The translations under genes were made by a program, and so were the position numbers. Positions 3,054 to 41,479 of a DNA stretch of 64,000 nucleotides are shown here, piece after piece. The DNA is from an uncultured Gemmatimonadales bacterium (GTDB taxonomy: Bacteria; Gemmatimonadota; Gemmatimonadetes; Palauibacterales; Palauibacteraceae). The notes under the pieces were generated by a model. It was given only the letters and a program-made list of their open reading frames with translations, was not told where the DNA came from and made no database searches. The DNA is taken from the NCBI GenBank assembly GCA_963783385.1, contig CAWANJ010000006.1, positions 448,001 through 512,000 on the forward strand, written 5' to 3'. Positions within the stretch are counted from its first letter, which is position 1. Each line of letters begins with the position of its first letter.

Positions 3054-3058
3054 TCGCG

Positions 3059-3295: not shown

Positions 3296-3333
3296 CGTCA
3301 TCTCCGCTCGACTGAGGTGGCCGAACCGGACGA

Positions 3334-4610: not shown

Positions 4611-4611
4611 C

Positions 4612-18870: not shown

Positions 18871-19527
18871 CTACCGGTACCAGCCCCCGATGGGCCACGC
18901 CACGGCGTCGCGCTGAAGCGCCGGATCGGCCGGCATCGCGAGGAGGAAGAAGGCGTCACGCTCGCGCCAGTCGGCAGGCTTGTCCGGAAACACCCCGTCG
19001 ATGATGAACCGGCCTGGATCGTCGACGCCGATAGTGGCCGAGATGGCCCGGGCGGCCGGAAGGATGTCGTCCGGTCCGGCGAGGGCCTTCGCTCCGAAGA
19101 AGCTCGGAGGCGGTAGCAGACCCTTCCCGGACAGGTAGAGAGCCCCGGTCCCCTCCGTCCGGGTGGCGAAGACCGAGGACCGAAAGCGTCCGAGCACCTT
19201 CCCCGCCCGCAGTCGGAAGACGTAGAGGACGACCCGTACGGGCCGCCTGCACTCGCACCGCAGCACGAGCGCCCCATCCAGGAGTTCGTGGAGGGGGATC
19301 CCGCGGGCTCCGCTCTTCGCGAGCAGCATGTCCGCGCGCCGCGGGTCGAGCTCCATGCGGGTCACGACGGGCGGCGAAGGATCGGACCGGACCACACCGG
19401 CCCGGACCCGCGTGGGCGCGGGTGCCTCCCCTGTCCCTGTGCCGGGAGGCGCGGGAGGGGACACGGCGAGCGACAGCGCCGCGATCAGCGGCGACAGGGC
19501 CGTGACCAGAAGCGCTCGTCCCATCAC
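18871..19527 (-). CDS. Secreted hypothetical protein homologous to the C-terminal domain of the OmpA protein
   Basis: Signal-like MGRALLVTALSPLIAALSLA; GTGA overlap with upstream gene; by-eye alignment given in findings. Confidence 0.7.
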   Translation of the reverse strand: MMGRALLVTALSPLIAALSLAVSPPAPPGTGTGEAPAPTRVRAGVVRSDPSPPVVTRMELDPRRADMLLAKSGARGIPLHELLDGALVLRCECRRPVRVVLYVFRLRAGKVLGRFRSSVFATRTEGTGALYLSGKGLLPPPSFFGAKALAGPDDILPAARAISATIGVDDPGRFIIDGVFPDKPADWRERDAFFLLAMPADPALQRDAVAWPIGGWYR

Positions 19528-20801
19528 GACGCCCCTCCCTCCTGAGCCTTCTCGAGCTGCTTCATCCACTCGGGCTCAGGCGGGCCGGCGTTCACCTTCA
19601 TGTCGTGCACGACGGTCTCGACCGTGAACGCGCCGGAGCTCATGGCGGAGCCGAGCGCCGCCTGGCCCTTCTCGAAGTCGGCTTTCCCATCGTGGGTCTC
19701 CATGGCCTGCTGCGACTGGCGCAGCATGGCCATCTGCTGACGGATCATCGGCTCCACCCGGGCCCGCTGCTCCGGGGGCATCTTGTCGAGCTGCTCCTGG
19801 AGCTGCTTCATCTGCTTCTCGAAGGCCTCGGACTGGGCGCTCCTCTGGGCCTGCGTAGGCTGACGACCGGCAGCCTCCTCGCCCTGCTGCCGGGCGGCGT
19901 CGATCTCGTGGCCGTGGGCGGCTTGGATCTGCTCCATGAGGCCTCCCACCTCGATCACGGTGTGGAACGGCCGGAGCATGCCATCCACCTCGCGGTAGTC
20001 GCCATAGCGGACCACCATGCGGATCTCGTGGTCTCCGTCGGAGTGGACGACCCCCGCGAACTCGTCCCGCAGGCTCACGTGGCGGTCGGTGTCGATGAGG
20101 AGCCTGGCCGAGGTGGGCGTGAAGTCTTCCATGCCTCCCTCGCCATTCGTGAGGTCGAGTCCCTCGAAGTCGCGGATCTCCAGGACCCAGGCCCGGTGGC
20201 CGTCCACCTCCTCCGTGCCGGTGACCGTGGCGCGCGCGGCCATGGCCCGCATGAGCTCCGGATCCGGGGTGGCCAGGGTCTGGCTGCTCTCGGCGAGCTG
20301 GCTCCCCAGCTTCCCCATTCCGCCCTGCAGGAGCTTTCCCTGGAGGCCGGCGGCCGGATTTCCCATCCCCCCCATGCCGCCCTGGCCCCCTCCCCCGCCG
20401 CGGCTGGTGGCGGGGTTCCGGGAGGGGTCGATGCCCCTCTCCTGCATGAGCCGCCGGATGTACTCGGACTCCGGCACGGATACGAAGGCCTTGCGGCCGT
20501 CGACCGTGCGGTTCTCGTAGTAGAGCTTGGAGCGGGCGCCGTTCTGCTCCTCGTCGACCCAGTAGTTCCGGACGTGGTCGAGCTCGGCCTCCTGGCGCCG
20601 GATCATCGCCTCGACGATCTCGGACGCCGAAGGCGTCTGGGCGGCGGCCGGAGCGGGGCCCAGGACCGTCGACGCGAAGAGGCCGAAGACGCCCAGGAAG
20701 AGGGCGCGGGCCGGGAGTCGGGCCGAGAGACGACGCCGGCCGTCCGCAGCAGGGATCGAGTGTCGCAGCGGCAGCGGTTCGCGTGCTTTCGGGAAGGCCA
20801 T
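19524..20801 (-). CDS. Secreted protein with LolA-like/DUF4412-like beta region and Gln/Met-rich helical insert
   Basis: Signal ending AAAQ; TGTEEVDGHRAWVL, YGDYREVDGMLRP, EKQMKQLQEQLDKMPPEQRARVE. Confidence 0.7.
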   Translation of the reverse strand: MAFPKAREPLPLRHSIPAADGRRRLSARLPARALFLGVFGLFASTVLGPAPAAAQTPSASEIVEAMIRRQEAELDHVRNYWVDEEQNGARSKLYYENRTVDGRKAFVSVPESEYIRRLMQERGIDPSRNPATSRGGGGGQGGMGGMGNPAAGLQGKLLQGGMGKLGSQLAESSQTLATPDPELMRAMAARATVTGTEEVDGHRAWVLEIRDFEGLDLTNGEGGMEDFTPTSARLLIDTDRHVSLRDEFAGVVHSDGDHEIRMVVRYGDYREVDGMLRPFHTVIEVGGLMEQIQAAHGHEIDAARQQGEEAAGRQPTQAQRSAQSEAFEKQMKQLQEQLDKMPPEQRARVEPMIRQQMAMLRQSQQAMETHDGKADFEKGQAALGSAMSSGAFTVETVVHDMKVNAGPPEPEWMKQLEKAQEGGAS

Positions 20802-20813
20802 TGAGTCCCCCAC

Positions 20814-21266
20814 TCAGAAGTACTGGTTGAGGTCGCTGAGGTCCATCGGTTTGGCCCTCTCGACGGTCCACCGGTACTCATCCGGGTAGTAGAAGTGACT
20901 GGTCGACAGAAGGCGGCGATGGGAGTCGAACTTCTTCACGATGAATCGATACTGGCGCCTGACGCTGCAACTCGCGGTCAGGTTGTACGTCCAGGACTTC
21001 GTCTGCCCCGGCTGGATCCATACGGACAGTCCAAGCTTCTTCCACCAGCCACCGTGGATTCGCACCTGGCTGTCGCGGGAGATGGCGACCTGGCGCGAAC
21101 CGCCGTCATGAACTCTAAACGTCACGACACAGCCCATGTCGGCCGTGGGCCGCGTGGAAACCTCGAACTGCACGTCGGGGGCGGCCCGGATCGGGCTGGG
21201 ACCGCCGCCGCCCGGGAGCGGCAGCGCCAGGGCGGTGAGCGCCAGGGTGCTCGTCCATCGGATCAT
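20814..21266 (-). CDS. Small secreted hypothetical protein (~150 aa, 2 Cys)
   Basis: AAGGAGG RBS then MIRWTSTLALTALAL...; appears fused in the ORF track only because of the upstream frameshift. Confidence 0.8.
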   Translation of the reverse strand: MIRWTSTLALTALALPLPGGGGPSPIRAAPDVQFEVSTRPTADMGCVVTFRVHDGGSRQVAISRDSQVRIHGGWWKKLGLSVWIQPGQTKSWTYNLTASCSVRRQYRFIVKKFDSHRRLLSTSHFYYPDEYRWTVERAKPMDLSDLNQYF

Positions 21267-21322
21267 CACATCCTCCTTCGGTGCCTGAGGAACGGGTCGG
21301 ACTTGCTCGAGCCGCGTAGCGC

Positions 21323-22709
21323 TCAGGAGCCCTTCGGAACGGCCTCGAACGTCACGTCGAAGCGCAGGTCTTCGATGACCCGGCGGTGGTTTTCGGGACG
21401 GAGCTCGAGGCTCCACCCGGTGCCGGCGAGCTTGCCGCGAAGCGCCCCGCCGCCGGCCGCCCGGAGCTCCAGCGTCCCGCTCTCGAGGACGGCGACGCGG
21501 TGGACGGCTCCGTGCGCGGGGTCGACGACCAGATAGAGGACGGTCGCCGGGGCCGGGATCGGTCGATCCGGGCGCCGCGCTCGGCGGAACGGCTTCGATG
21601 GGCAAGGTGCCGCCGCTCGAGGCATCGGCCGGCAGGCCGACCACCAGGCACTCGGTCACCTTGCCGATGCTCCCCATGACGAGGCGCTTGCGGCCGTCCT
21701 CCCCGGGGCCGGCCGGGGCGAAGGCGCTCCCGGACGCGGTCATCGACATCGGCCCCGAGGTCTTCAGCTCGAACGAGCCGCCCTCGCCGTCGAGTCCCTG
21801 CGTGCAGGCCCGCTCGGACCCGTACAGGCCCTGCTGCACCAGCTCGGAGCGTCGCTCCGAGAGACGGGGAAGCCCTTGGTATGCCTCCGCCGAGGGCGCC
21901 GAGCCGTCGGACGCGATCGAGTCCACGGTGATCGTCCGGGTCAGGTAGCCCCCGCCGTAGGGTGCGCTCGCGGCCGCGCCTCCGGTGACCACCAGGGAGT
22001 CCCACACCTCGGCCCGGAGCAGGAGACCGAGCTTCTCCAACCGGGGGCCCAGAGCGAGCGCCACGCGGCTGGTCACCCCGGGCATCCACTCCGAGAGTGG
22101 CACGGCCTCGGGACTCTCGCGGGGCGTGGCCGCCACCGGCAGCCATGAGAAAGGCAGGTCGCCGGCGAAGTACAGGTCGGAGCGGCCGGTCGCGCGGAAG
22201 GGGACCGCCGCGCCGGACCCGTCCTCGCTCCTCCACCAGCTCTCCACCTGCACCACCGCGTGGCGGGTGGCGTGACCCTCGATGGACGGGCCGGCGCCGG
22301 CGTCGGCGAGGTCGAAGCGGAGCGAGTCGAGGATGGCCTGGCCGGAGTCGGCGACGGGCGACCAGGTCCGGTAGCCGGCGGCGTTGTCGGGGGCGACTCG
22401 CCAGGCCTCCGCCAGGTAGGCGGGCCGACCCGCGAACGACACGGCCGTGGCCGGAGCGCCGCCCACGGCGGCCCCGTCGAGCAGCTGCGTCTCCCCGGTC
22501 GCCGTGCGCATCGCTCCCAGCTCGGGGCCTGTCACGCCCCACCACGTCTCCCGGCCGCCGCCCTGCTCGAGGTGCATCCGGTAGGCGAGGGCGCTCGCCT
22601 GCGAGGCGGGCGCCCGGGAGCAGGCCGTTCCGGCCCCCGTGAGGAGGATCGCCGCGGCCAGGACGCGGGCGACGGGGAGGCCGCGGTCCGCGAGCTTTCG
22701 CATTGTCAT
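21323..22709 (-). CDS. Hypothetical lipoprotein, frameshift near 21560
   Basis: Lipobox AGTAC; reading continues in the 21323..21625 frame (TVLYLVVDP...FDVTFEAVPKGS). Confidence 0.7.
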
Positions 22710-22710
22710 C

Positions 22711-22826
22711 TCAGCGGCTCCCGTTCAGGATGAAGGCGACCGGGAGAGGGAGCCCCGCGCGGAGCCGATCGCGCGCCGCGCCAGTCCCACGCGCCGGTTC
22801 TGCGGGCCACCTTCCGCACCGCCCAC
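22711..22826 (-). pseudogene. Collapsed relic of a paralog of the OmpA-fusion gene
   Basis: Encodes AEGGPQNRRVGLAR (cf. PEGRQQNRRVELVR) and, in another frame, LPVAFILNGSR* (cf. LPVAFIMNGGR*). Confidence 0.6.
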
Positions 22827-22827
22827 C

Positions 22828-24828
22828 TCACCGGCCTCCGTTCATGATGAAGGCCACCGGCAGAACGCGGCTGTGGGCGGCCTCCTCCTGGTTAACCGGG
22901 GTTACGACCAGGTACAGGACCGATTGCCGCCTCCAATCCACCTTGGCCCGGCCGAAGACGACACCCGTCGAGGCGATCGCGTGAGCGTCCGCCAAGTACC
23001 GGTCCCCCGGGACAAACTGGTCTCCCGGGACGAACTGGTCCCCCGGGATAAACTGGTCTCCCGGGACGAACTGGTCCCCCGGGACAAACTGGTCTCCCGG
23101 GACGCGGCTCGACCCCGGACGCAACGGAAACCACTTGGACGGCCACGCCTCGTGCATCCGCCCCCCGGTGATGACGATGGCCACCACTCGAGCCCTGGTC
23201 TCGCGCTCCCCGGAGAGATCGATGACGAGGCCCTTCGCCAGGGTCTCGTGGACATCCAGGGCCCGCTCCCCGGACGCGATCGCGTCTCGAGCGGTGGCGG
23301 TAAGACCAAGCCGGATCGTGGGCCACGGCGCCGAAGTGGGTCGACGCGGGCTCGAGAGAGGGTCGTACCGACCGGCACGGTCCGTCGGACCCGGTACCGG
23401 CATGGAGGTTGGGGCGGGGACCATCCGCGGTGGCGACTCGTGCGGAGCTCCCGCCGCCGTGTCCTCCGCGGCGGCCGAACCCGGGGCCTTCCCTCCCTGC
23501 CCCTCAAGCCGCACGAGCTCCACGCGCCGATTCTGCTGCCGGCCTTCCGGCGTGCCGTTGTCGGCCACGGGCTTCGTCTCGCCGAAGCCGGCGGTCTCTA
23601 GGCGGGAGGGGTCGATCTCGTCCTGCTCGGTGAGGTAGTCCCGCACCGCCCCGGCGCGGCGCTCGGAGAGGTCCTGGTTGTAGGCCTCGTCCCCCGTGCT
23701 GTCGGTGTGCCCTTCGATCGACAGTCGGAGGTCCGGGTGGTCGCGCAGCATGGCCGCGATCTCTTCGAGCGTCGGCGTCGACTCCGGCCGGATCCGAGCG
23801 CTGTTCACGGCGAACAGGATCCCGTGCGTCGCCACCCGGCCCTTCTCGGCGAGGACGTCGTAGAGGTCCCTCCCCCCGGCGGCGACGCGGATGGGCCCCA
23901 GGTACATGGGGTTCTTGTCGTCGGCGAAGTAGACGTTCTCCAGGTACAGCGAATTGCCCCGATGTAGCTCGGCGTTGGGCACGTTGGCGACGCGCTGCGA
24001 GCCGACGTAGACCTTGGCGTAGCGGTCGTCGACCATGATGCGGACGGGGACGATCTTCTGGCCCACGTCCGGGGTTTCGTTCAGGGACTGGACGCCTCCC
24101 TTGTCGTTCGACAGCACGCCGGTGCCCTGCACCACGGCCACCTGGAAGACGTTGCCCGGCAAGCGGTCGAACCGCTCGCCCGGCGAGGGAGGCGAGGGCG
24201 TGACGACCAGCCGCTGGTTCTCGTGCGTGAAGTAGGCGTCGAACTCGATCGTGAAACGGGCCGGAAGCGTGTCGCCGAGCGGCACCTCGATCGCCGATCC
24301 GCGGGGGCCCGTGTTCCTGAGGAGACGGCGGCCGCGCCACTCGACCAGCTCCCAGTTTCCCTTCCGGAAGGTCAGCCTTCGCGGAAAGTCGCCGACCTGG
24401 TCGTCGCTGTAGTCGTCGTAGAAGAGGACGTGGTCCCCGGGGACGAAGTCGTAGTTGGCCCACACGCCCGTGTTCGGAGCCGCGGTCTCGTCCCCGATGG
24501 CCGCGTCGGCGGCCTGGTCCGCTTCGGTGATCGGCTTGCCTTCGTCGTCGGTGAGGACGTTGCCCTGGTCGTCCGTGTAGACGACGTCCTGCCCGCTGTC
24601 CTCGGCCTGCTGGACACAGACCGGATCGTCGAACACGCACTTCACGGCGTTGCTGATGAGACGGTTGATCTGGTTCTCCGTCTCGTTCTCGAGCGCGTTC
24701 TTGGCGGCCCGCTTGAGGCGCTTGAAGATCTGGGCGTGCCCCGGCGCCGGAAGGGCGACCAGCGCCACGGCGCCGAGGAGCAGGGCGCGCGTGGCGAAGC
24801 GGGTGCGGGAGCGGGTCGGGCCTCGCAT
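22828..24828 (-). CDS. OmpA/MotB-family peptidoglycan-binding protein with N-terminal beta domain and extra C-terminal domain
   Basis: Signal ..GHAQIF; NYDFVPGDHVLFYDDY; ILFAVNSARI, IEGHTDSTG, NQDLSERRA, GRQQNRRVEL; GGAGG RBS. Confidence 0.9.
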   Translation of the reverse strand: MRGPTRSRTRFATRALLLGAVALVALPAPGHAQIFKRLKRAAKNALENETENQINRLISNAVKCVFDDPVCVQQAEDSGQDVVYTDDQGNVLTDDEGKPITEADQAADAAIGDETAAPNTGVWANYDFVPGDHVLFYDDYSDDQVGDFPRRLTFRKGNWELVEWRGRRLLRNTGPRGSAIEVPLGDTLPARFTIEFDAYFTHENQRLVVTPSPPSPGERFDRLPGNVFQVAVVQGTGVLSNDKGGVQSLNETPDVGQKIVPVRIMVDDRYAKVYVGSQRVANVPNAELHRGNSLYLENVYFADDKNPMYLGPIRVAAGGRDLYDVLAEKGRVATHGILFAVNSARIRPESTPTLEEIAAMLRDHPDLRLSIEGHTDSTGDEAYNQDLSERRAGAVRDYLTEQDEIDPSRLETAGFGETKPVADNGTPEGRQQNRRVELVRLEGQGGKAPGSAAAEDTAAGAPHESPPRMVPAPTSMPVPGPTDRAGRYDPLSSPRRPTSAPWPTIRLGLTATARDAIASGERALDVHETLAKGLVIDLSGERETRARVVAIVITGGRMHEAWPSKWFPLRPGSSRVPGDQFVPGDQFVPGDQFIPGDQFVPGDQFVPGDRYLADAHAIASTGVVFGRAKVDWRRQSVLYLVVTPVNQEEAAHSRVLPVAFIMNGGR
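23001..23103 (-). repeat. 18-bp coding tandem repeat (VPGDQF)x5 plus VPGDR
   Basis: Units such as GTCCCGGGAGACCAGTTT / GTCCCGGGGGACCAGTTC alternate; one unit reads IPGDQF. Confidence 0.95.
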
Positions 24829-24903
24829 GGGATCCTCCTGCAGGGGACGGCTCGGCCGCGGCACGAGGGACGGGACGAATCTCCCGTCCGCCCGCCCGGC
24901 CGA

Positions 24904-24937
24904 TCCCTAGAGCGGAAAACGGAGATCGGAGCCGCCA
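24904..24937 (-). promoter_or_regulatory. Candidate ECF-type promoter upstream of the OmpA gene
   Basis: TGGCGGCTCC-N13-CGCT-N3-GGGA, same layout as 29336..29369. Confidence 0.55.
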
Positions 24938-24971
24938 CGGCGCGGTCGGGGAGCGCCGCGCGGCCGTCGGC

Positions 24972-27617
24972 TCAGGGGCAGGTTCCGTCCACGGGCTTGC
25001 CGCGGCGGCAGGCCCGGAACTCGATGTGAATGTGGCCGGCCGCGTGCGCCTCCTGTCCGCCACTCGCGTCCCCGTAGGCCGGCGCGAACATGGGGGCGTC
25101 CACCACGCCATCCACCCGTTGCGGGGAGACCCTTGTGATGGAGATCGGCACCCGGTCGTTCCTTGGAGGCGTTCCGAGGATGTACTGCCGAACGGTCCCC
25201 ATCGGGACCGCTCCGAAGACCGCGTGATCTGAGAGCCACAGCCCGCCCTCGGTCTCGCTGACACTGGAGATGCCGTGCGCGTCCTGCTGGTCCGCGTCCG
25301 GCATGAGCATGATGCGGAGGTTCGGGCTCGCCTCCCGGGGCGAACTGAGCCCGATGAAGGAGACGCGGCCGCCGGCGGAGTCCATGACCCCGAGCGGGCT
25401 CGCGGCGAGAGGCCCCGCGGGAACGCCCTGGAGGCCGGCGAGGGCGGACGTGCCCGAGTAGGTCCCGGAGATCTCCCCGCTCACCGTGGCGGTCCAGCCC
25501 GCGCAGCGACCGACCTGCACCGTCACCGAGGTCTCGAGCTCCGGGTGGCCCCGGACCGCGGCCTTCACCCTGTCCTGGCCGGGCGACGAGGGGGCCCGGT
25601 AGAGGCCGTCGCGATCGATGGGGCCCAGATCGGCGGTCCACGTAGCCTGGACGCGTCGTCCCAGGTACAGGGCGGAGAAGGCCTGCTGATCGCCGGGGTC
25701 CACGCAGGGGTTCGCGGGCTCGATGGCGACGAGCTCGGGCTCGAGCCGGGCGTAGCCCGATCGTTCAGGGGCCTCGGCCAGGTGACTGCGGTCGGCGGTG
25801 CTCGTGGCCTTCACGGTGATGGTCCCCTGGGGATCGCGCGGGACCTGGATCTTGACGACCTGGTCCGGGGCGGTTTGAGGGATCCCCACCAGGCGGCCGC
25901 CGCCCAGCACCTTCCAGCCGAGGCTCGGGTCGAGGGCGTGGTCCACGGTGACGTGGAGCGCCACGACCTGCCCGGCCCGGACCGGGGTGGACTCGGGGTC
26001 GAATGTGACCTCGATCCCGTGCACGACGAGGTCGCGCCTCAGGACCCTCTGCTGGTCCCCGAACTTGCCGCCCTTCGTCGCGATTCTCAGGACCGTGGTG
26101 CCCGTCCGGCGAGGACTGTAGCTGTGCGGCCCGGCGAACTGGACCGCCCGGCCAATGTAGTTGACGTCCAGCCACCGGCCGGTCTCTCCGTCCGGGACCA
26201 CGGTGTGGAACGTCTCCGGGGGAAAGTTGAACGCATCGGGGCCCCGGGTGGCCTCCTGGGCCAGCTGGCCCAGGAGATCGTTGATCACGAAGTCACGCAG
26301 CTGGTCCAGGAAGGCCGTGAACGCCTTCGAGGCGAATCGGCCCTCCCAGCTCCAGCTGATTCCGCCCATGGACTCCATTCCGGCCAGCTGGGACATGGAC
26401 TCCAGGGCGAACGTGGACATCTTCCACGGCTCGCTCCGCGCGGTGATCCGGACCCGGTGCCATTCCCCCGGTCCCGGATCGTCCTCGTCGAACAATGTCT
26501 GCGACAGGTCGACCTCGAGATCGGACATCCGTCCGGGCAGCAGGTGTGAGGCGGCCAGCGCGGCCTGCTTGTAGGCCCACACCGCGCTCCCGATCGCGCC
26601 CGCCTCCTCGGCCACCGGCTCCGCCTTGAAGAACTTGGCCGTTCCCGCGGCCATGGCCATGGTGCTGCCCAGGACGTCCAGCAGGTGGGCCGGCCGGCCG
26701 CTGGTCCCGAGGCGGGCCCACAGCGCCAGCTCCATGCGGTGTGAGAGCTCCGCCGGCGTCGGGTTGAAGTAGCTCTCGGCCGGACCGAAGGCCTCCGCCA
26801 CGGGGTGGCCGGGGCCGGGGGAGAAGGAGGCCAGCAGGACGGGGCCGTGCCGCTCCGCTCCTCTGGCCAGGTCGCTCGTGTGCCGCTGAACCTCGGCCGT
26901 GAGCGCCCTGAGCTCCTCGGCCGTACCTCCACGCGCCAGCAAGGCATCGACGAAGGCGCCCGGGCCGGCGGTGTCACGCGCCCCTTCGAGGGCTCGGGCC
27001 CGCGCCAGCAACGAGCCGGGGCGTGATGGAGCGCCCACGGCGGCGAGCGCGGCGAGGAGCGGCACCAGGGGTGGGGCGAGCGTGTCGGGATCCGCGTTTC
27101 GAAGCCGCTGGGGGGTCGTCCCGAACAGCCGGACCTGCGCGTCCACGAACCCGGCCAGCGCGTCGAGCGTCGCCGCCGTGGCGCCGGGGGCCGGTCGGAG
27201 TGCGGCGAGCTCGAGAGAGCGTGGGGGACACACCAGGTCCCCGTCCGTGGGACGGATCTCGAGGGTCGCCGCGCCGAGCCCGCCGTCGGGTCGTCCCGGG
27301 ACCTGCAGGACGAGCGTGCCGTCCGGCTTGCGGCCCACCAGGGCCACTCCCTCGGCCCCTTCGCCCGCAACCCGAACCCGCGCCCGAAGAGCCTCGAACC
27401 GGCCCCCGGTCACTCCGACCAGGGTCACGGTGTCGAGCGGCGTCGCCGAGCGCCGGGCGAGCGACCAGTCGTCGCATCGGAGCGGCGCCTCTGCCGGAGC
27501 CCGGCTCTGTGCATCGGCGGGCCCCGCCGCGTCCCCGCGCCCGTGGCAGCCTCCCAGGCCGACGAAGCCCAGCAGGAGCGCGGCCGGAAGGCCGAGACGC
27601 CGCGGACGTCCTCTCAC
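24972..27617 (-). CDS. Large lipoprotein (881 aa) with Ig-like repeats
   Basis: Lipobox GLGGC; VTFDPESTPVRAGQVV, VAIEPANPCVDPGDQQAF, GPIDRDGLYRAP Ig-like segments. Confidence 0.75.
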   Translation of the reverse strand: MRGRPRRLGLPAALLLGFVGLGGCHGRGDAAGPADAQSRAPAEAPLRCDDWSLARRSATPLDTVTLVGVTGGRFEALRARVRVAGEGAEGVALVGRKPDGTLVLQVPGRPDGGLGAATLEIRPTDGDLVCPPRSLELAALRPAPGATAATLDALAGFVDAQVRLFGTTPQRLRNADPDTLAPPLVPLLAALAAVGAPSRPGSLLARARALEGARDTAGPGAFVDALLARGGTAEELRALTAEVQRHTSDLARGAERHGPVLLASFSPGPGHPVAEAFGPAESYFNPTPAELSHRMELALWARLGTSGRPAHLLDVLGSTMAMAAGTAKFFKAEPVAEEAGAIGSAVWAYKQAALAASHLLPGRMSDLEVDLSQTLFDEDDPGPGEWHRVRITARSEPWKMSTFALESMSQLAGMESMGGISWSWEGRFASKAFTAFLDQLRDFVINDLLGQLAQEATRGPDAFNFPPETFHTVVPDGETGRWLDVNYIGRAVQFAGPHSYSPRRTGTTVLRIATKGGKFGDQQRVLRRDLVVHGIEVTFDPESTPVRAGQVVALHVTVDHALDPSLGWKVLGGGRLVGIPQTAPDQVVKIQVPRDPQGTITVKATSTADRSHLAEAPERSGYARLEPELVAIEPANPCVDPGDQQAFSALYLGRRVQATWTADLGPIDRDGLYRAPSSPGQDRVKAAVRGHPELETSVTVQVGRCAGWTATVSGEISGTYSGTSALAGLQGVPAGPLAASPLGVMDSAGGRVSFIGLSSPREASPNLRIMLMPDADQQDAHGISSVSETEGGLWLSDHAVFGAVPMGTVRQYILGTPPRNDRVPISITRVSPQRVDGVVDAPMFAPAYGDASGGQEAHAAGHIHIEFRACRRGKPVDGTCP

Positions 27618-28759
27618 CGCTCCGCTTCTCCGTGCGGCTGTGGCTCGCTCGCCTGGAAGCTCCGCACGAGGGCCTCGAGCATACCCCTCATGCCCTCGAA
27701 CCGCGTCATCCAGCCCAGCGCGAACCGGAGCTGCGCGTCACCGTGGGCGAGGACGAGGGCCTCGAGCCCGACCTCCACGCTGGGCCCGGTCGTGGTCCAG
27801 CGGTGAAGCGGCTGGGCCAGCCGGGTTGCGTAGGTCACCGAGAAGCCGTGCGCCTCGCCGATCCGGACCTGCTCGTGGTCCTCGGTGACCTCCAGGGCGC
27901 GCCGAAGACCGTGGCCGACGTCGCGTGCCTGCTCGAAGGTCCAGGTGCCGGCCGGGGCCATGTCGAGCACCAGCGAGGCGCCGAGCGGTCCGCGAAGCTC
28001 CAGGAGCCGCTCACCCCCGGGCGGTTCCGCGGCGAGGATAGGGCTGGCCGACAGCACGTGGAAGGTCCCCGCTTCCTCTTCCCCCGGTGGGCCCTCCCGC
28101 CAGCTCGACGGCACGTCGAGGGAGAAGCCGAGGCGTGCGTCGACAATGCGCCGGACGTTCCGGGCGTCCTCGACGGCGGCGCGCCGGCGCTCCTCCAGCC
28201 ACGTCCGCGCTTCGCCGGCGACGCGCTCCGGGGAGGGGATGCGCTGGAAGGTGAACATGCGTCGCTGGTTGCGGCTACGGCTGCCGGTGTAGCGGTTGAA
28301 GGCGAGGTTCCCGAGCCCGGAACCCGCCGCCTTCACCTCCACGAAGGCCACCTTCTCGGGCGGGAGGGACCAGAGGACCTTCCCCTCCGGTCCTCGCACC
28401 GCCAGGAGTCGCCGGTCCGTGATGCCGTAGGCCGTGCGGTTCAGGCCCGCGCGCTCGACGACCAGGACCCCGACCCCGAGGAGGGGGAGCGAGGCGAGGA
28501 CGGCCACGGGAACGAGGAGGTGGGGATCGGCCAGCGGGCCGTCCGTCACGGAGGCCAGGAGTCCGTCGCCCAAACCCGAGCCTCCCGCGGACGCGGACAG
28601 ACCGTAGTAGGCGACGCCGGCCGCGACCACCACGGTCGCCGCCAGCCCGACCAGGCCGCGGCCGAACGCCCGGCCCGCCACGGGCCGGTCCGACCACGAC
28701 ACGCTCTCTCCGGCCTCGAGAGCAGGCTCGAGGGCCTGCCGCGCCTCGCGCTGTCTCAT
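27614..28759 (-). CDS. Membrane protein with bacterial PH-like domain and C-terminal PsbP-like segment
   Basis: ALEAGESVSWSDRP, two TM, RTAYGITDRRLL, GFSLDVPSSW; ATGA overlap with upstream gene. Confidence 0.7.
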   Translation of the reverse strand: MRQREARQALEPALEAGESVSWSDRPVAGRAFGRGLVGLAATVVVAAGVAYYGLSASAGGSGLGDGLLASVTDGPLADPHLLVPVAVLASLPLLGVGVLVVERAGLNRTAYGITDRRLLAVRGPEGKVLWSLPPEKVAFVEVKAAGSGLGNLAFNRYTGSRSRNQRRMFTFQRIPSPERVAGEARTWLEERRRAAVEDARNVRRIVDARLGFSLDVPSSWREGPPGEEEAGTFHVLSASPILAAEPPGGERLLELRGPLGASLVLDMAPAGTWTFEQARDVGHGLRRALEVTEDHEQVRIGEAHGFSVTYATRLAQPLHRWTTTGPSVEVGLEALVLAHGDAQLRFALGWMTRFEGMRGMLEALVRSFQASEPQPHGEAER

Positions 28760-29257
28760 GGCGCGGCGTGCCCCACGGTGGCCTTGATGGTCACGAGCTT
28801 GCCGATCGCGTTCACGCTCACCAGGCAGCTCTCCCGTCGGCCGTTCCGCACCCCGGTGAGGTGCCCGATGAACAGCGAGGCGTTCGCCGTGGTGTCGCTG
28901 CGCGCGATCTCGAACCCGGCGGCCCTCACCTCCGAGGCCAGGAACCGGTAGACCTCGGGTCCCGATCCGTCCTCGATCCGGGCCGTCACCATGAGCTGCC
29001 GGGTGCCGATCCCGGCGGCGCCGTGCAGCGTCAGAATGGGAGGTGATCCGGGCATCGTCCGGCATGCGAAGCTGCTCGGGCCATCCGTCGGGGTAGCCGT
29101 CCGCGCTCGAGTCGCGGGAGTTGCCGGGAGCCGAGCCATCCTCTGCGGCCGCGCCGGACGCCGACGCGGCGGAGCGCGGTGAGCCGCCGCCGCACGAGAC
29201 CTGCGCCACGGCCACGCCGGCCACCAGGATTCCGGTGAAGCACTTCCGGAGCTGCAT
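28756..29257 (-). CDS. Small lipoprotein, frameshift near 29035
   Basis: MQLRKCFTGILVAGVAVAQVSCGGG...YPDGWPEQLRMP then ...EVYRFLASEVRAAGFEI... Confidence 0.65.
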
Positions 29258-29335
29258 ACCCACCCCTTCCCGAGACTCGAGGACCGGTCCGCGCCCCGTC
29301 CCCCGGCGCGTGCCGTGGGCCGATGCGGCTTCCTG

Positions 29336-29369
29336 TCCCGAAAGCGTAGGAAGGCGGCTGGAGCCGCCA
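29336..29369 (-). promoter_or_regulatory. Candidate ECF-type promoter at the head of the lipoprotein operon
   Basis: TGGCGGCTCC-N13-CGCT-N3-GGGA; also contains a GGCGGC-TCCA-GCCGCC hairpin. Confidence 0.5.
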
Positions 29370-29427
29370 GGCAGGAGAGCCGGGCCATGCTGGTGGGCTG
29401 GCGCAGGCCCGGAGGGTCCGGCCCCGC

Positions 29428-32137
29428 TCAGCTCCCCCGGTCCGCCTCCGCGGCCGGAAGGGAGTCGAGCCGGGCCAGGGCGGCGCGGCAGGCACCGAGG
29501 TACTTCTCCTGGGGGGTGCCTTCGCGGTCGGCGAGATCCTCGGCGGCTCCCTCGAGGAGCGGGCGCGCTTCCTCGAGGCGGCCCTGTCCGGCCAGCGCCC
29601 GACCCAGCCGACACTCGGCCACGGCCGTGATCCAGTGGCCGTCCGGCAGCGCCTCGCGCAGGATCCGCGCGGCCTCCCGGGCCGAGCTCTCGGCGCCCGG
29701 GTAGTCGGACCGCCTCAGGCGAATGTCCGCCTGGGTGAGCAGGGGGAAGGCGACGAGCTGGTTCCCCGGCAGGAGCGTCCGGCGGTAGATCTCGCTGGCC
29801 CGACCCAGGAGCTGCTCCGCCTCGTCGTACTTCCCTTCACGCGAGAGGACGGCCGCCAGGTTCTGCATCCCGCTGGCGGTCTCGCGATGATCCTCGCCGA
29901 GCGTTCGCCGGCGGATGTCGAGGACGCGGCGCTGGAGGCTTTCCGCCCCGGCGAGCTCGCCGCGGGAGGCCAGCAGGAGCGCCAGGTTGTTCATGGCGGC
30001 CGTCGTGTTCGGATCCTCCGCGCCCAGACGCCGCTCCAGGATGTCGATGGCACGGCGAAAGTCCGCCTCGGACTCGTCCAGGCGCTGCTCCTGCTCGAGC
30101 TCGCCGGCCTCGGAGACCAGGGCAAAGCCGGTCTGCACGGCGTCCGGACCGAACACCTTCTCGTCGAGCTGCCTCGCTTCCTGGATGGCGGTCCGGGCGG
30201 CGTCCATCTCATCCAGCCCCCGGTAGGTGTCGGACAGGTTGGCCAGGGTGCCGGCCAGGTCTCCCTCCGGTACCGGGTCCGCGGCTCGCTCGAGGGCGAC
30301 GGCGCGCTCCAGGTGGAGCCGAGAGCTGTCCAGCCGTCCGACGTCGTACTGGAAGCGTCCGAGCGACGCGTGGAAGGGCGCCAGCGCGGGGTCGTCCCGG
30401 GGGTGCGCCGAGCGGGCCTTCGCCACCGCCGCGTGGTAGAGGGCGTCGGCGGAGTCGGGCATGCCGCGCCACGCCGCCAGGGCTCCGAGCTGCAGCAGGA
30501 CGCGCCCCAGCAAGTCTGGAGCCTCGCCGGGCGCCGTCCCCAGGGACCGCAGTGCCTCTTCGGCGGTCCGGGTGGACTGGTCGTACTGACCCAGGTCGCT
30601 GAGCGCCTGCGAGATGGCCAGGAGGAGCTCTCCGCGAACGACCGGCCGGTCCGCCAGCTCGGTGCGCAGCCGACGGGCGCCTACGTCCAGGGCCTGGATC
30701 ACCGTGAGGTTGGCTCCGTAGGCGGAGTCGTGAGGCGTGAACGGGTCGGCGCTCCGGAACAGGCCAGCGAGCAGCGACTGGACCTCTTCGGCCCGGGTGG
30801 CCTGGGCCCGCGCCACGTTGCGCTCGCGCTCCAGCGCCCGGGCGTGGTGCGCGAGGGTGTACACGTAGCCGCCCGCCGCGAGGATCACGAGCGCGGCCGT
30901 CGGAGCGAGCCACGGCTTGCGGCCCAGGAGCCGCCGGGCCCGGTAGGCCACGCTGTCGGAGCGTGCCGAGATCGGGAGACCCTCCCGGTAGCGCTCCAGG
31001 TCCTGGAGGAGGGCCTCGGCCGTGGCGTAGCGCCGCTCCGGCTCCTTGCGGATCGCCTTGAGGACGATGAGGTCCAGGTCGCCGGCGAGGCGCCGGGACA
31101 GGCTCCGAGCCTTCGTCCGCCGGTCCCGGGCGCCCTCCTCGGTGACCAGCTCGCTGGGGCGACGCGGTCTGGCCGTGAGGATCGCTTCCTCCATGCGGGC
31201 CGGCGACAGCGCTCTCACCTCGTAGGGGCGGCGGCCGGCCACGACCTCACACAGGAGCAGGCCGAGCTGGTAGACGTCGGAGGCCGTGGTGATCGGCTCC
31301 CCCGACACCTGCTCCGGGCTGGCGTACTCCGGGGTGAGCGGACGGAGGAGCGTGCGGGTGCGGGGGTCGTCCGCGGCCGCGTCCAGGATCTTGGCGATCC
31401 CGAAGTCGAGCAGCTTCACGCGACCGCGGGCCGTGACCATGATGTTGGACGGCTTGAGGTCCCGGTGGACGACCAGGTTGGCGTGGGCGAACTGGACCGC
31501 CCGGCACACGTCCGCGAACAGGTCGAGGCGCTCCTCGAGGCCGGATCGGTCGCTCGTCGCAGTAGCGGGTGATGGGCGTGCCCTCGACCCGCTCGAGCAC
31601 CAGGTAGGGGAGCCCGTCGTCCGTGGTGCCGCCTCCCAGGAAGCGGGCGATGTTGGGGTGGTTGAGCGACGAGAGGATCTGCCGCTCGGCCAGGAAGCGG
31701 CGGATCGTGTCCTCGGTGTCGATGCCGCGGCGGACGACCTTGACGGCCACCCGCTCGTCCCACTGACCGTCCACCCGCTCGGCCGAGTAGACCGTCGCCA
31801 TGCCGCCGCGGCCCAGGCGGTCCACCAGGCGGTAGGGGCCGACGCGCTCCCCGGTCCGATCCGGATACGGATCGGTGGCCTCCTCCGGCCGGGTGGATTC
31901 GAGGATCTCGTCCCAGGGCACGTCGCAGACGTCCTCGGCGGGACGCTCGAGGAAGGAGGAGGCGCTGCGGTGCGCCTCCAGGAGCGCCTCGACCGCCTCG
32001 CGGAGCGCGACGTCCTCTCCGCACACTTCCGCTACGAAGCGAGCGACCCGCGAGGGGTGCAGCTCGAGCGCCTCGACGAAGATCTCGTCGGCTTTGCGCC
32101 ACCGGCCGCCGGCGTCGTTCGTGGTCTCCTCCAGCAC
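29428..32137 (-). CDS. Hanks-type Ser/Thr protein kinase with TM and TPR repeats, frameshift near 31550
   Basis: LGRGGMATVY, VAVK, HPNIA, HRDLKPSN, KLLDFGIAK, TPEYASPEQ; C-terminal TPRs (AAMNNLA, SGMQNLA). Confidence 0.93.
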
Positions 32138-32149
32138 GGAAGGGCGGGT

Positions 32150-32767
32150 CTATTCCCGGGCCCGGGCCTCGTCCTCGGGGTCCGGCTCCGCGGCCAGCGT
32201 CCTGTACAGGTGCGCCTTGGCGCGGGCCCAGTCGCGCTCGACGGTGCGCTCCGACACGTCGAGCGCGGCCGCCGTGTCGCGCACGCTCATCCCGCCGAAG
32301 AAGCGGCACTCGACCACCTGCTCCAGGCGGGGATCGTAGCGCGCCAGGTTGGTGAGCGCCTCGTCCAGGGCCAGGAGCTCCACCGTCCGGGGCTCCTTTC
32401 CGGACAGCTCGTCCCGGAGCGGGATGTGGATGGCCCCGCCCCCACGCTTCCTGGCCCCCCGGCTGCGCGCGTAGTCGATGAGCACCTGCCGGATCACTGT
32501 GGCTGCTACAGCGAAAAAGTGGGCCCGGTCCTGCCACGTGGCGGTGGCCTGGTTGACAAGGTGAAGGTAGGCCTCGTGGACGAGAGCGGTCGTGCTGAGC
32601 GTGTGGCCCTCGCGCTCGCTCCGTAGGCGTCGGTGGGCGATACCGCGGAGGTCGTCGTACACCAGGGGGACGAGCCGCTCGAAGGCGGAACGGTCTCCAC
32701 TGGTACACTCGCCCAGCAGGCGCGTGACCTCGCCCGCAGGAGGATCCGGTCGCCGCTCGCTCTCCAC
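32150..32767 (-). CDS. ECF sigma factor, kinase-associated ECF43/TIGR02999 type
   Basis: LVPLVYDDLRGIA..HTLSTTALVHEAYL..RAHFFAVAA..VECRFFGGMS..TVERDWARAK. Confidence 0.92.
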   Translation of the reverse strand: MESERRPDPPAGEVTRLLGECTSGDRSAFERLVPLVYDDLRGIAHRRLRSEREGHTLSTTALVHEAYLHLVNQATATWQDRAHFFAVAATVIRQVLIDYARSRGARKRGGGAIHIPLRDELSGKEPRTVELLALDEALTNLARYDPRLEQVVECRFFGGMSVRDTAAALDVSERTVERDWARAKAHLYRTLAAEPDPEDEARARE

Positions 32768-32790
32768 GCGTGACCCCGGCGTCTCCGCTC

Positions 32791-34528
32791 CTACCAGCCC
32801 TTCATCATGTCCTGGACCGCGAAGCTGGGCTCGATGTCGACCGGCACCTTCCGCAGCCGGTCGAGGGCGGCCTGGAGCTCGGGCGGAACCGTGCCGTATC
32901 GATCCAGGAACTGGCCGGCCCCGTCGTAGTCGCCCGTGGCCTCCAGCGTCAGGTAGCGGCCGGCCAGCGCCGACATGGCCCCGGGCATCTTCTGGAAGTC
33001 GACCGAGAACACCCCCTGCGCCGCGTCGTACACGATCCCTCCCCGCTCGCGCAGGAAGTTGAACTGGGTCATGCAGCCCTTGCCGTGCGCCTCGTTGGCG
33101 CCGAAGCGGACGCAGCGGACCAGGTCGGCCAGGTGGGAGATGTAGACCTGCCGCAGGAACTCCTGGTCGTAGACGCCCTGCTGCACGAGCTCCGCCAGGT
33201 TGTGCGTCCCGACCGCGTCGGCCTTGGCCTCCTCGATGGCCGAGTAGCGGTCCTTGAGCGCCTTGTTCACGGTCAGGCCCTTCTGGCCGTGCACGTAGTC
33301 GGGCCCGAGGCCGTGCGAGAGCTCGTGCATGAGGATGCGGGTAAAGTACGGCTTGAAGACGATATCCGCCGCCTGCGCCGAGTCGAGCACCAGCCGGGCG
33401 ATCGGCTTCAGCACTTTGTCGAACTTGGCCTGCGACACGTTCTGGAGGAGGACCTTCTTGGAGCCGTGCTCCTGCCGGACCTTCGGGTCGTTGGGGAGGT
33501 TGAAGGCCAGCGTCTTGATGCCCGGCCCGGCCTCCCCGGCCGAGTACACCTCGGTCACCACCGAGATGGGGGAGCTGAAGTCCCGGTCGAGGTTCTTGTA
33601 CGCGTCCGGCTCGGGGAGATGCTCCTCGAGGTACTTCGAGGTGCGACACCAGGCCCGCGAGCTGGGCGCTGGCGGCCGAGTCCTTGACCCCGATGAAGGT
33701 CTCGAAGGACGTTTTGTAGCCGAACAGCTTGTCTTCGTAGACCTCGTACGGCCCGATGGTGGGGGCGATGGTGTTGCCCGTGAGCTCCACCCAGGCCACC
33801 TCGCTGTCGAAGTAGTCGTCGCTGGTGAACGATTCGGCCCGGAGCCGCAGGAACTTCTTCAGCGACGGATTCTGCGCCGCGTCCGAGGCCTCGCGCAGCA
33901 GCGTCGCGGCCCTGGCGAGGCGGTCGTGGTAGTACTTCGAGTAGGGCACCGCCTCCAGCCCGCCGTCGGGCGTCCTCCGGATGACCGTGTAGTAGGAGGT
34001 GAAGGCGGTGCTGTCGTCCGGGTGCTGGGCGAGCCACGCGTCGAACGCATCCCGGGTGAGGTCCTCCGGATAGAAGCCGGCTCCCTCGGGCTTGGGGGGC
34101 ACGTCCAGGAAGGGCGCGTCGCTCAGCAGCCGATCCCAGGGGCCGTACATGATCTCGTAGTACTCCCGCGCCGCGTCCATGCCCGGACCGCTCGCATCGG
34201 CCAGCCGCCGGCCGTACGAGAGGTCACTTCGCCACACCTGGAGCCGGAAGATGCTGTCCAGGACGTCGGAGGCCTGCACCAGCTTCTTGAGCACCGTCTT
34301 CTGGCCGGCGTCGAGCTCGGCGCTGTCGAACGTCAGGGTGACGGTCGCGAACTGCTGGACGCGGGCCAGCAGGCTGTCGGCCGTGAGCCCCTGCGCCATC
34401 GCGATCTCGGGCGCTGACTCGCCGCCGCCCGAGCAGCCCGCGGCCACCAGGCCTCCCAGCCCGATGAGCCCGGCCAGGGCGAGGCGCGCCGCGCGAACGG
34501 TCGATGAACCATCACGGAGTTCAATCAC
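32791..34528 (-). CDS. Peptidase M49 (DPP III-like) zinc-peptidase lipoprotein, frameshift near 33645
   Basis: Lipobox AAGC; IGPYEVYEDKLFGYK, AFNLPND, HELSHGLGP, EEAKAD. Confidence 0.88.
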
Positions 34529-34619
34529 GGGATTCTCCTTGGAGGCTTCGTGGCCACGTGGGACCAGCGCGCCGGGCTGACCCCGAAGCGGCAGCAGGTG
34601 GTTCAGCGGCGCCGATCGC

Positions 34620-38075: not shown

Positions 38076-39347
38076 GTCGGATCCTCCTCTTCTTCCTGCG
38101 GGTCCGGCCCGCGGCGCGCGAGCTCGGTCTGACCGGGTGTGCCGGACGCCCGGCCCGCCGGGCCCCCGCTCTCCTCCAGTAGCGCGGCGCGGGTGACGGC
38201 CCCCGGCCCGAAGCGCTCGGCCAGCCGGTCAACGGCGGCCGCCACGCGCTCGTCCCGGCGCTCGCCCTCCACGCTGAACAGGCTGAGCTGTCGTCCCTCC
38301 TCGGGGACGAGCGACGACAGGCTGACGCCCACCAGTCGGATCCTGCGCCCGGGCCGATCTGCCCTGGCGAAGAGGTCCCGGGCCACCGGCCAGATCCGCT
38401 CGGTGGTGTTCACGGCGCGGTCGAGCGACGCCTGACGCGTGACGGTCTCGAATTCTTCCCAGCGCAGCTTCACGGTCACGGTGGAGCCTGCCAGACCCCG
38501 GCCGCGGAGCGCAAGGGCGGTGCTCTCGCACAGCCCGAGGAGCGTTCTTCGCACGCGCTCCCGGTCGGAGAGGTCGTGGTCGAAGGTGATCTCTTTGCCC
38601 AGCGACTTCCGTTCCCGGTCCGGGCGGACCGGACGCTCGTCGAGGCCGCGGACGAGGTCGTGGAAGCGGCGACCTCGAGCCTCCCCGAAGGCTCCGATCA
38701 GCACGTCGAGTGGGAGCTCCGCCACGTCGCCCAGGGTCGCGACGCCCAGCCTCCGGAACCGCTCCAGCGCCCGGGGACCCGCGCCCCACAGCCGACTGGA
38801 TCTCGAGCGAGCGCCAGGAAGGCGCGCTCTTCGCCGGCAGGGACCACCACCAGGCCGTCGGGTTTCTCCAGGTCGCTGGCGATCTTGGCCACGAACTTGG
38901 AGGCGGCGACGCCCACCGAGGCGGTGAGGTCCTCGGCTTCGTGGATCTCCCGCTTGATCCGCCGCGCGATCTCGGGGCCGGGTCCGAACAGCTGCCGGCT
39001 GCCGGTGACGTCCAGGAAGGCCTCGTCGATGCTGAGGGGCTCGATGAGGTCGGTATAGCGGCCCAGGATCTCGAACACGGCCGCGGAGACCTCGGAGTAT
39101 AGGTGGCGCCGGGGCCGCAAGTAGACTCGGCGTGAGGGCAGCGGCGCCACGCCTCGGAGATGGGCTGGGCCGAGTGGATCCCGAAGCGGCGCGCCTCGTA
39201 GCTCGCGGCCGCGACGACGCCCCGCCCACGCCCCTCCTGGGGATCCGAGCCGACCACGACCGGCTTGCCACGGAGCGACGGGTCCTGCCGTTGCTCGACG
39301 GAGGCGAAGAAGGCGTCCATGTCCACGTGCAGGACCGTGCGGCTCAT
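38072..39347 (-). CDS. dinB: DNA polymerase IV, two frameshifts (near 39130 and 38805)
   Basis: [55 protein letters not shown]. Confidence 0.92.
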
Positions 39348-40201
39348 CGCGCGTCCCTCTCGTCCACGATCCTCCGCGCCCGTCCCGGGAAGTCGCTGAT
39401 CAGGCCGTCCACGCCCAGGCCGAGGAGGCGGCGCATGTCGCCGGGCTCGTTCACGGTCCACACGAACACGCCGATGCCGTGCCGCCGGGCCCGCTGCACG
39501 AAGCGGCGCGTCACGATCCGGACCGGGCCGTGGCGCTCGGGGACCATGACGGCGTCCACCTCGGGTGGCTGGCCGGCCGGGAGCCAGCCGAGTCCGAGCT
39601 TCCCGAGGAGCACGTAGGTGCGGAGATCCTCCTCGGCCGCGCATCGCCAGCGGGCCCGGCGGGCGCCGCGGTCGACGGCGGCGCGCGCGAACCCGCCGAC
39701 CAGGATGCGGGCGGGGTTCACGGTGCCCTCGGCGAGGCAGCGATCCAGGGCCTCGGCGGCGCGATCCGTCTTCACCTCGGCCACCACGGGCAGGGTCCCG
39801 GCCGCCTGCATCGCTTCCTCGAGGGTGGGGAAGCGGACGCCCTTCCCCCGGAAGGGGTGGGTGCGCCCGCGGTCGGGAGTGAACGCGTACCCCGCGTCCA
39901 GGGACCGCGCTTCCTCCAGGGTCATGTCCTCCATCGGCCCGGAACCATCGCTGACCCGGTCCACCGTGTCGTCGTGGAGCAGCACGAGACGGCCGTCGCG
40001 GGTCGCGTGGAGGTCGAATTCGACCGCGTCGGCGCCGACCGCGACGGCATGGCGGATGGCCGGAAGCGTGTTCTCGGGGGCGCATCCCGCCGCCCCGCGA
40101 TGCCCGATGACGCGGACGCTGCCGGCAGGGGCGAAGGCGGTGCCGCCAGGGGCGGCGCCCTGCGGGAAGGGGCCGGATGCTGCGGATCCGCCGTGGACCA
40201 T
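39344..40201 (-). CDS. Glycerophosphodiester phosphodiesterase
   Basis: [42 protein letters not shown]. Confidence 0.93.
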
Positions 40202-41409: not shown

Positions 41410-41479
41410 CCTTGACGCCTTCCTCGACCGTGGCACCGACCGTGAACCGCTCGGAAACGAGCCAGGAGCCGACGAACGA

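Follow-up and report, generated by a model that had tools for sequence, protein, structure and literature searches.

Sigma factors of the extracytoplasmic function (ECF) group ECF43 have been worked out in a few Proteobacteria only, and their target promoters are little known. As far as the excerpted text of two reports goes, the DAED motif is missing from all ECF43 members (PMC8999054), while the group has the consensus QTTA, the Thr of which is conserved in 88% of members (PMC13147305). In Vibrio parahaemolyticus the sigma factor EcfP carries STTA instead of DAED, its gene adjoins that of a Hanks-type kinase, PknT, which phosphorylates the second Thr, and there is no anti-sigma gene (same excerpts of PMC8999054); the EcfP regulon consists of polymyxin-resistance genes. 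In Xanthomonas citri the sigma factor EcfK has Thr in the sigma-2.2 motif and its kinase, PknS, is composed of an N-terminal extension, the kinase domain, a transmembrane helix and periplasmic tetratricopeptide repeats (TPR), the periplasmic part being needed for signalling (PMC13147305, in the part consulted). Here a locus of this kind is described from an uncultured Gemmatimonadales bacterium, within a stretch of 64,000 nt (positions 448,001 to 512,000 of contig CAWANJ010000006.1, assembly GCA_963783385.1), the whole of which is termed the window. In this locus the genes of an ECF sigma factor and a membrane kinase are followed by genes of envelope and secreted proteins, including one, termed the OmpA fusion, with a C-terminal OmpA domain (OmpA_C). 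The reading we prefer, at a probability of roughly 60%, is that of a phosphorylation-switched ECF43-type sigma system with an envelope regulon, the local output of which would be a lectin/OmpA_C operon. The locus thereby offers, for a poorly studied and mostly uncultured phylum, a candidate promoter motif with a rigid 16-nt spacing, as well as a conserved output gene (lectin plus OmpA_C) and candidate regulon members elsewhere in the genome. In the literature searched on ECF43 with OmpA and on ECF sigma factors and kinases of Gemmatimonadota, no description of the lectin/OmpA_C partner or of the motif was found; the primary lists of EcfP neighbourhoods lie outside that scope.

The sigma factor matches PF07638 (179.9 bits) and TIGR02999 (217.4 bits, cut-off 126.15), the models into which ECF43 members presumably fall. 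Its translation carries HTLSTTALVHEAYL, where STTA replaces DAED, so that region 2.2 combines uncharged residues with a conserved Thr of the STTA/QTTA type (LSTTALVHEAYL). The form xTTA or xTTG is kept in 27 of 28 aligned sigma rows, the window's included, and the 28th is a short spurious open reading frame (ORF). The kinase gene starts 10 nt past the sigma stop codon, and scans with Pfam and NCBIfam matched no anti-sigma family in the locus. The kinase consists of an N-terminal extension of ~100 residues, a Pkinase domain with HRDLKPSN and DFG, and TPR repeats (TPR_12 116.9 bits, TPR_10 115.2 bits); Pkinase is matched on both pieces into which the gene is split in the assembly, and the C-terminal piece contains a single hydrophobic stretch, at residue 215. 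Extension, kinase domain, one transmembrane helix and TPR sensor together give the layout of a PknS/PknT-like receptor kinase. Across the genome a kinase gene follows each of the four strong PF07638 sigma genes. We thus read the regulator pair, on the STTA motif, the adjacent Hanks kinase, the lack of an anti-sigma gene and the PknS architecture, as a member of the known phosphorylation-activated ECF43 kind, in agreement with an earlier note on this DNA.

In comparison with EcfP/PknT, the window pair shares the STTA motif, the adjoining kinase and the absence of an anti-sigma gene, and the activation proposed for it, by phosphorylation of the second Thr, is alike. It differs in its host, a member of Gemmatimonadota, in the long periplasmic TPR sensor and in the proposed regulon, which would comprise the lectin/OmpA_C protein and exoproteins instead of polymyxin-resistance genes. 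EcfK/PknS is close in kinase architecture and in having Thr in the sigma-2.2 motif, whereas EcfK carries QATE together with a second site in the linker (PMC13147305, excerpted text) and the window sigma factor carries STTA. EcfK controls a type VI secretion system (T6SS); in the window locus no T6SS family was matched, and TssL appeared only as a domain-level match to OmpA_C.

The first line of evidence for a local output comes from gene neighbourhood. Scanning one genome per species yielded 292 confirmed relatives of the OmpA fusion, and the best 80 of these matches provided the best 79 loci anchored on it, which by record label are mostly Gemmatimonadota, with some metagenome-assembled genomes of Acidobacteriota and of Bacteroidota/Rhodothermota, and others. 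Window genes were compared with these loci by tblastn (E<=1e-5); many loci are short contigs, hence absences are soft. A sigma factor was found in 32/79 loci, a kinase in 35/79 and one or both in 38/79. The pair takes three arrangements: in 14 loci the kinase gene shares the strand of the OmpA fusion and ends at most 530 nt upstream of it, ~10 loci have a divergent pair that abuts the OmpA fusion, and 3 have the pair just downstream. Further downstream genes follow at lower counts, namely p429 (12/79), the small secreted protein (5/79, mostly right after the OmpA fusion and before p429), the second lipoprotein (3/79, namely L019, L020 and L025, right after the OmpA fusion and in one frame each) and p232 (3/79). 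Judged from these homologues, the sigma/kinase pair and the OmpA fusion make up the conserved core, after which the small secreted protein and p429 often come. An all-against-all cluster of 17 loci ('H') was rejected, since the second lipoprotein and the small secreted protein had been grouped in it together with unrelated proteins.

The second line of evidence is a promoter-like motif, GTGGCGG-N16-YCGYT, common to the regions upstream of the OmpA fusion in sigma-linked loci. With 14-17 nt allowed, the spacer is 16 nt in 15/15 non-redundant strict sites. The 1.22 Mb of loci contain 71 strict matches on both strands, 21 of them immediately upstream of the OmpA fusion and 5 immediately upstream of the sigma gene; several more are located in the sigma coding sequence, where the codons of W-R-D-R-A-H-F-F-A spell the motif. 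Where the upstream region spans at least 300 nt (76 loci), motif and sigma/kinase pair are both present in 15, the motif only in 1, the pair only in 23 and neither in 37 (Fisher's test 1e-4, the related genomes not being independent). The window contains a single instance of the strict pattern (24911-24937, minus strand), with its TGGCGG core 109 nt before the OmpA-fusion ATG; one strict match per 64 kb is by itself not above chance (1.84 expected). When the whole genome of 3.54 Mb is scored with a matrix derived exclusively from 20 sites in other genomes, this site comes out on top, at 27.4 bits; 5 matches reach at least 23 bits, versus 0 in five Markov-1 simulated genomes, in which the maximum was 21.4. 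In the window, the genes of the small lipoprotein, the 881-aa lipoprotein and the second lipoprotein have no strong site in front of them. A scan for consensus sigma-70 promoters and for terminators found none of the former and 1 terminator-like site, below the numbers in shuffles, and is uninformative at 71% G+C.

Two of the strong genome matches stand before genes of plausible relation to the envelope. One, on contig 9, lies 45 nt upstream of the ATG of a gene whose 962-aa product is paralogous to the 881-aa lipoprotein; the other (23.7 bits) lies 36 nt before the ATG of a secreted papain-family protease (PF00112, 173 bits; G000:C1:715219-716391, i.e., L104:420-1592, minus strand). Their position suggests that the output is an envelope or exoprotein regulon. 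Another match of at least 23 bits precedes an unclear ORF on contig 6. Sites of at least 22 bits, at -70 to -77, precede two of 15 other genes of the 881-aa family, and weaker ones precede two more; the family, of ~900-aa lipoproteins with immunoglobulin-like (Ig-like) domains, thus gains a first regulatory context.

Several minor observations concern the motif. Within the window's sigma coding sequence (32507-32538, minus strand) a 24.1-bit match to the matrix is spelled by the codons of W-Q-D-R-A-H-F-F-A, and several related sigma genes have a match at the same position; either coincidence of coding or an internal promoter that reads into the kinase gene could explain it. Weakly related to the motif is TGGCGG-16 nt-ACGCT (11.5 bits), at 29340-29371 on the minus strand, ~83 nt before the ATG of the small lipoprotein. 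Elsewhere in the genome (G000:C7:113237-115745, L105) a site of 21.4 bits, a score within the range of the simulated genomes, stands before a gene of a small protein resembling nitrile hydratase alpha, followed by one of a DUF4135 protein (346 bits); by sequence the two resemble an NHLP-type peptide precursor and its LanM-like enzyme.

The mechanism proposed on these grounds is as follows. The membrane kinase would read an envelope cue through its periplasmic TPR domain and, as family knowledge suggests, would phosphorylate the second Thr of STTA, which would supply the negative charge needed for RNA polymerase binding. The sigma holoenzyme would then initiate at GTGGCGG-N16-YCGYT promoters, and the one in the window would drive an operon of the OmpA fusion, the second lipoprotein, the small secreted protein, p429 and p232; at other sites the same motif would bring in the 881-aa paralogue and the secreted papain-like protease. 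For the regulatory link the conserved adjacency and the motif speak together, and from them we infer that the promoter is used. Signal and physiological role are inferred as well, and the response would most likely concern cell-envelope stress or remodelling.

The OmpA fusion itself, as the conserved partner, deserves closer description. It matches PF00691, the OmpA_C domain, with 97.1 bits. An AlphaFold2 (AF2) model from a 53-sequence alignment (predicted local distance difference test score, pLDDT, 87.8; predicted template modelling score 0.73) begins with a signal peptide and a long helix (residues 31-60), which are followed by a small alpha/beta part in which a pair of Cys residues is conserved. 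Residues 132-320 form a ConA-like lectin sandwich, with Z 16.5 to 3zr5 (176 residues aligned, root mean square deviation (rmsd) 3.1), Z 15.5 to both 1oq1 and 5zbt, and Z 13.5 to 3hbk (DUF1080); the model thus predicts a jelly-roll of the ConA/galectin type, at the level of fold only. Residues 322-440 correspond to OmpA_C (Z 18.1 to 5wtl over 119 residues, rmsd 2.1). GHTD and N..LS..RA, which we take to be peptidoglycan-contact residues, are invariant in the 53 sequences. In the model the eight-stranded beta-barrel of the OmpA porin was not found, residues 31-320 being helix, alpha/beta part and lectin-like sandwich, and a profile search of the N-terminal part against PDB sequences returned only OmpA_C. 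Pal, YiaD and MotB share with the OmpA fusion the OmpA_C domain, including the GHTD and N..LS..RA columns and structural Z of 16-18, while the OmpA fusion differs from them in the N-terminal helix, the Cys-pair domain and the ConA-like sandwich, and in having neither beta-barrel nor lipobox. The product is accordingly modelled as a predicted periplasmic lectin-like protein that would be anchored to peptidoglycan via OmpA_C.

The window's copy also has an additional C-terminal part with VPGDQF repeats, encoded by an 18-nt tandem repeat of 5.7 copies (23001-23103). Many differences at 23000-23050 in aligned metagenomic contigs indicate that the repeat region varies between strains, and in locus L008 the VPGDQF part forms a separate ORF upstream of the OmpA fusion.

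Could the OmpA fusion belong to the input of the system, also or instead of being its output? It would then be a peptidoglycan-anchored co-sensor that binds the kinase TPR and signals how wall or outer membrane fare, in the way the OmpA-like lipoprotein YfiB gates YfiR/YfiN. The tight adjacency of kinase and OmpA fusion, which tolerates rearrangement (co-directional, divergent, convergent), would suit such a contact, TPR domains are protein-binding modules, and the dependence of PknS signalling on its periplasmic domain, stated in the excerpts of PMC13147305, points the same way. YfiB of the YfiBNR system is likewise an OmpA_C-type protein encoded beside a membrane signalling protein, and the resemblance extends to the domain level (NF053585 of NCBIfam, 98 bits; YfiB chains among the fold matches). 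However, the curated YfiB cut-off of 128 bits is not reached, the OmpA fusion is without a lipobox and has a large N-terminal region, whereas YfiB, a small lipoprotein, has no lectin domain, and its partners are YfiR and a diguanylate cyclase rather than a kinase and a sigma factor. The promoter motif before the OmpA fusion fits an output, though feedback loops can combine both roles. A co-sensor is regarded as doubtful. Equally speculative is a wider picture, in which a widespread and so far undescribed envelope-surveillance circuit of Gemmatimonadota, Acidobacteriota and Rhodothermota would use a TPR receptor kinase to phosphorylate an ECF43-type sigma factor that reads GTGGCGG-N16-YCGYT promoters, and would have a regulon of anchored lectin, Ig-like lipoproteins of the 881-aa family and secreted proteases, and in which the lectin would dock on the kinase TPR as a co-sensor of wall state, closing a feedback loop.

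It is decidedly unlikely, in our view, that the adjacency reflects only inherited gene order or chance, with the pair controlling genes elsewhere and the motif serving another sigma factor. The following points speak for it or weigh against the envelope-regulon reading. The order M49 peptidase-OmpA fusion-carB occurs without a sigma gene in at least 9 loci, as plain vertical synteny, and the second OmpA-fusion paralogue of the genome, on C2, has no sigma/kinase pair within ~7 kb. The genome holds four paralogous sigma/kinase pairs, so that the motif is not assignable to the window's pair alone. The strict motif is absent in 23 of the 38 sigma-linked loci, several of which have variants, and one of the five top matches of the genome lies inside the window's sigma coding sequence, hence coding coincidence can score high. 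Counts over the 79 loci are neither independent nor unbiased, being drawn from best matches with many related genomes among them. The sigma factors adjoining the OmpA fusion do not form one clade in a sigma tree, from which no conclusion was drawn, its sample being almost wholly from loci anchored on the OmpA fusion. Finally, among the 20 public runs that contain the stretch, 0 are on record as RNA runs. Against mere synteny stand the persistence of the adjacency over three arrangements and across phylum labels, the near confinement of the motif to loci holding the pair (15 versus 1), and its occurrence in front of the sigma gene in 5 loci, which would be expected if the ECF sigma factor were autoregulated.

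As regards the gene order itself, the loci with M49 peptidase, OmpA fusion and carB but no sigma/kinase pair share flanking families (L021, L030, L036, L043, L076, L096 and others). Both patterns are combined in the window and in L069 and L077, and in the window's lineage the sigma/kinase pair lies inside the M49-OmpA fusion-carB block. The M49-like peptidase gene is syntenic with the core in 10/79 loci, and the left edge drawn for the locus in the earlier note had cut it off.

That note had seen in the ~eight downstream genes a single signal-induced, peptidoglycan-anchored surface apparatus, possibly defensive. Such an apparatus is very improbable: single orientation, short gaps, two start/stop overlaps, signal peptides or lipoboxes in nearly all genes, the linkage of the 881-aa family to sigma/kinase pairs in 7 of its 17 loci and the motif before its paralogue would speak for it, but the small lipoprotein and the 381-aa membrane protein were found in 0/79 loci each, the 881-aa protein in 5/79 and the second lipoprotein in three, the more distant of the membrane protein's homologues (50% identity) lacks both of the window's neighbours at its side, the only strong sigma-type motif of the locus precedes the OmpA fusion, downstream of the first three genes, and matches to PADLOC defence models are generic. 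The latter models, run on 13 sequence pieces, matched only the kinase pieces (PD-T4-6, mad6 and PglW, all through the kinase domain) and OmpA_C (ZorB/MotB), with the other 10 pieces without a match, which leaves the defensive role without specific support. Of the note's reading the peptidoglycan-binding component stands, the OmpA fusion being the conserved partner; the eight genes are not one conserved unit. The co-occurrence of downstream genes with such pairs, which the note had put forward as a check, is borne out for the OmpA fusion (38/79), p429 and the small secreted protein, is occasional for the 881-aa and second lipoproteins, and fails for the small lipoprotein and the membrane protein. 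The trio at 24972-29257 (small lipoprotein, membrane protein, 881-aa lipoprotein) is, as far as homologues and gene overlaps indicate, a lineage-specific, translationally coupled insert that separates the kinase gene from the promoter-like motif.

The 881-aa lipoprotein belongs to a large unnamed family, with 547 cluster representatives at E<=1e-3 and 282 at 1e-10 in an exhaustive HMMER search, while a word-based homologue search returned only the protein itself. The family is sparse, occurring in 7/41 relatives and, with two candidates per genome scored, in 17/401 genomes of the phylum, and is much less widespread and less conserved than the OmpA fusion; the 17 loci compared for a nearby pair include the window. 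Its AF2 model (pLDDT 80.2) shows an IPT/TIG-like domain, a helical core, Ig-like and Big_2 domains and a C-terminal beta domain. Fold matches are limited to the beta domains (Ig-like, IPT/TIG, Big_2), and the ESM Atlas gave no usable match for the helical core, residues 146-460, which was barely tested. The membrane protein has two homologues only, of 82% and 50% identity, among 5.8 billion proteins; the label 'PH-like' given to it earlier is faint, its sole support being a PuhB match (E 0.018, 14.9 bits). For p429 the Atlas lead is TP_0789-like/DUF4412 at 0.88, weakly LolA-like, a profile search against PDB sequences returned nothing, and one relative is fused to PG_binding_1 (5e-11). Scans with Pfam and NCBIfam matched no family, enzyme families included, to the unknown proteins of the locus, the small lipoprotein and p232 among them; the earlier note had likewise recognised no enzyme motif. 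The M49-like peptidase matches PF03571 on both halves (27.8 and 19.4 bits, cut-off 21, the halves being scored separately), and its translation contains HELSH and EEAKAD.

Domain scans and translations agree with the gene inventory given before, i.e., ECF sigma factor, kinase with transmembrane helix and TPR, then envelope and secreted genes, and with its co-orientation: by third-position G+C all genes of the finding lie on the minus strand (Table 1), and the stop/start overlaps ATGA/GTGA stand at 28756-28759 and 27614-27617. The window's G+C of 71% crowds plain ORF lists with false frames. Four frame breaks had gone unnoticed, in the kinase, the two lipoproteins and the M49-like peptidase, where the frame changes mid-gene. 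The reading frame beyond each break is shifted by +1, which matches the effect of a single inserted base. Logan contigs from four public runs of four studies, all salt marsh and sediment metagenomes and mostly 99% alike, were aligned to 20500-34600 and lack one base at each break, which marks the breaks as insertion errors of the assembly; in relatives the two halves of kinase, peptidase and second lipoprotein are in one frame each. We conclude that the four breaks were introduced by insertions in the assembly and that the organism itself carries intact genes, which matters for annotation of the genome, where they would appear as four pseudogenes.

Table 1. Features of the locus in window coordinates, from high to low, with the runs whose contigs lack a base at the given position.
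Feature	Coordinates	Strand	Remarks	Base missing in contigs
M49-like zinc peptidase lipoprotein	32791..34528	-	upstream syntenic neighbour of sigma gene; frame break ~33638	33638, 4/4 runs (part of depth in X4 and X6)
ECF sigma factor, ECF43 type, 205 aa	32150..32767	-	PF07638, TIGR02999; STTA at sigma-2.2 position	
Sigma/kinase spacer			one base missing	32142, 3/4 runs
Hanks-type Ser/Thr kinase	29428..32137	-	N-terminal extension, kinase domain, transmembrane helix, predicted periplasmic TPR; frame break ~31551	31551 (31548 in one contig of X4), 4/4 runs
Small lipoprotein, lineage-specific	28756..29257	-	signal peptide and Cys in translation; frame break ~29035	29035, 4/4 runs
381-aa membrane protein, lineage-specific	27614..28759	-	no Pfam match	
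881-aa lipoprotein, large unnamed family	24972..27617	-	LGGC lipobox, Ig-like domains	
Promoter-like bipartite motif CGTGGCGG-N16-TCCGCTCTA	24908..24939	-	matrix from other genomes	
OmpA fusion	22828..24864/24828	-	PF00691	
Second lipoprotein, directly after OmpA fusion	21323..22709	-	frame break ~21555	21555, 4/4 runs
Small secreted protein, two conserved Cys	20814..21266	-	alignment of 7 sequences	
p429, secreted protein	19524..20813	-	possibly LolA-like body, Met-rich helical tail	
p232, secreted protein, sporadic distribution	18871..19569	-	signal peptide in translation	

Beyond p232 there follow genes of an ATP-binding cassette (ABC) ATPase and an ABC-2 permease, and carB. Frame breaks of like kind were seen in a further kinase gene and a further sigma gene of this genome (L098:6505-8732; G000:C3:153215-153773), and candidate frame switches without a stop codon were noted in the window at ~39126-39348, 41409-41578, 45601-46106 and 60574-61282; single-base insertions probably occur throughout the assembly. 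Rfam matched no RNA family anywhere in the window, and 2.6 kb at 2056-4657 are non-coding by a codon-position model. Between runs, the N-terminal region of the M49-like gene (33962-34229) differs by one-base insertions and deletions that come in pairs, and these look like compensating strain differences or further consensus errors.

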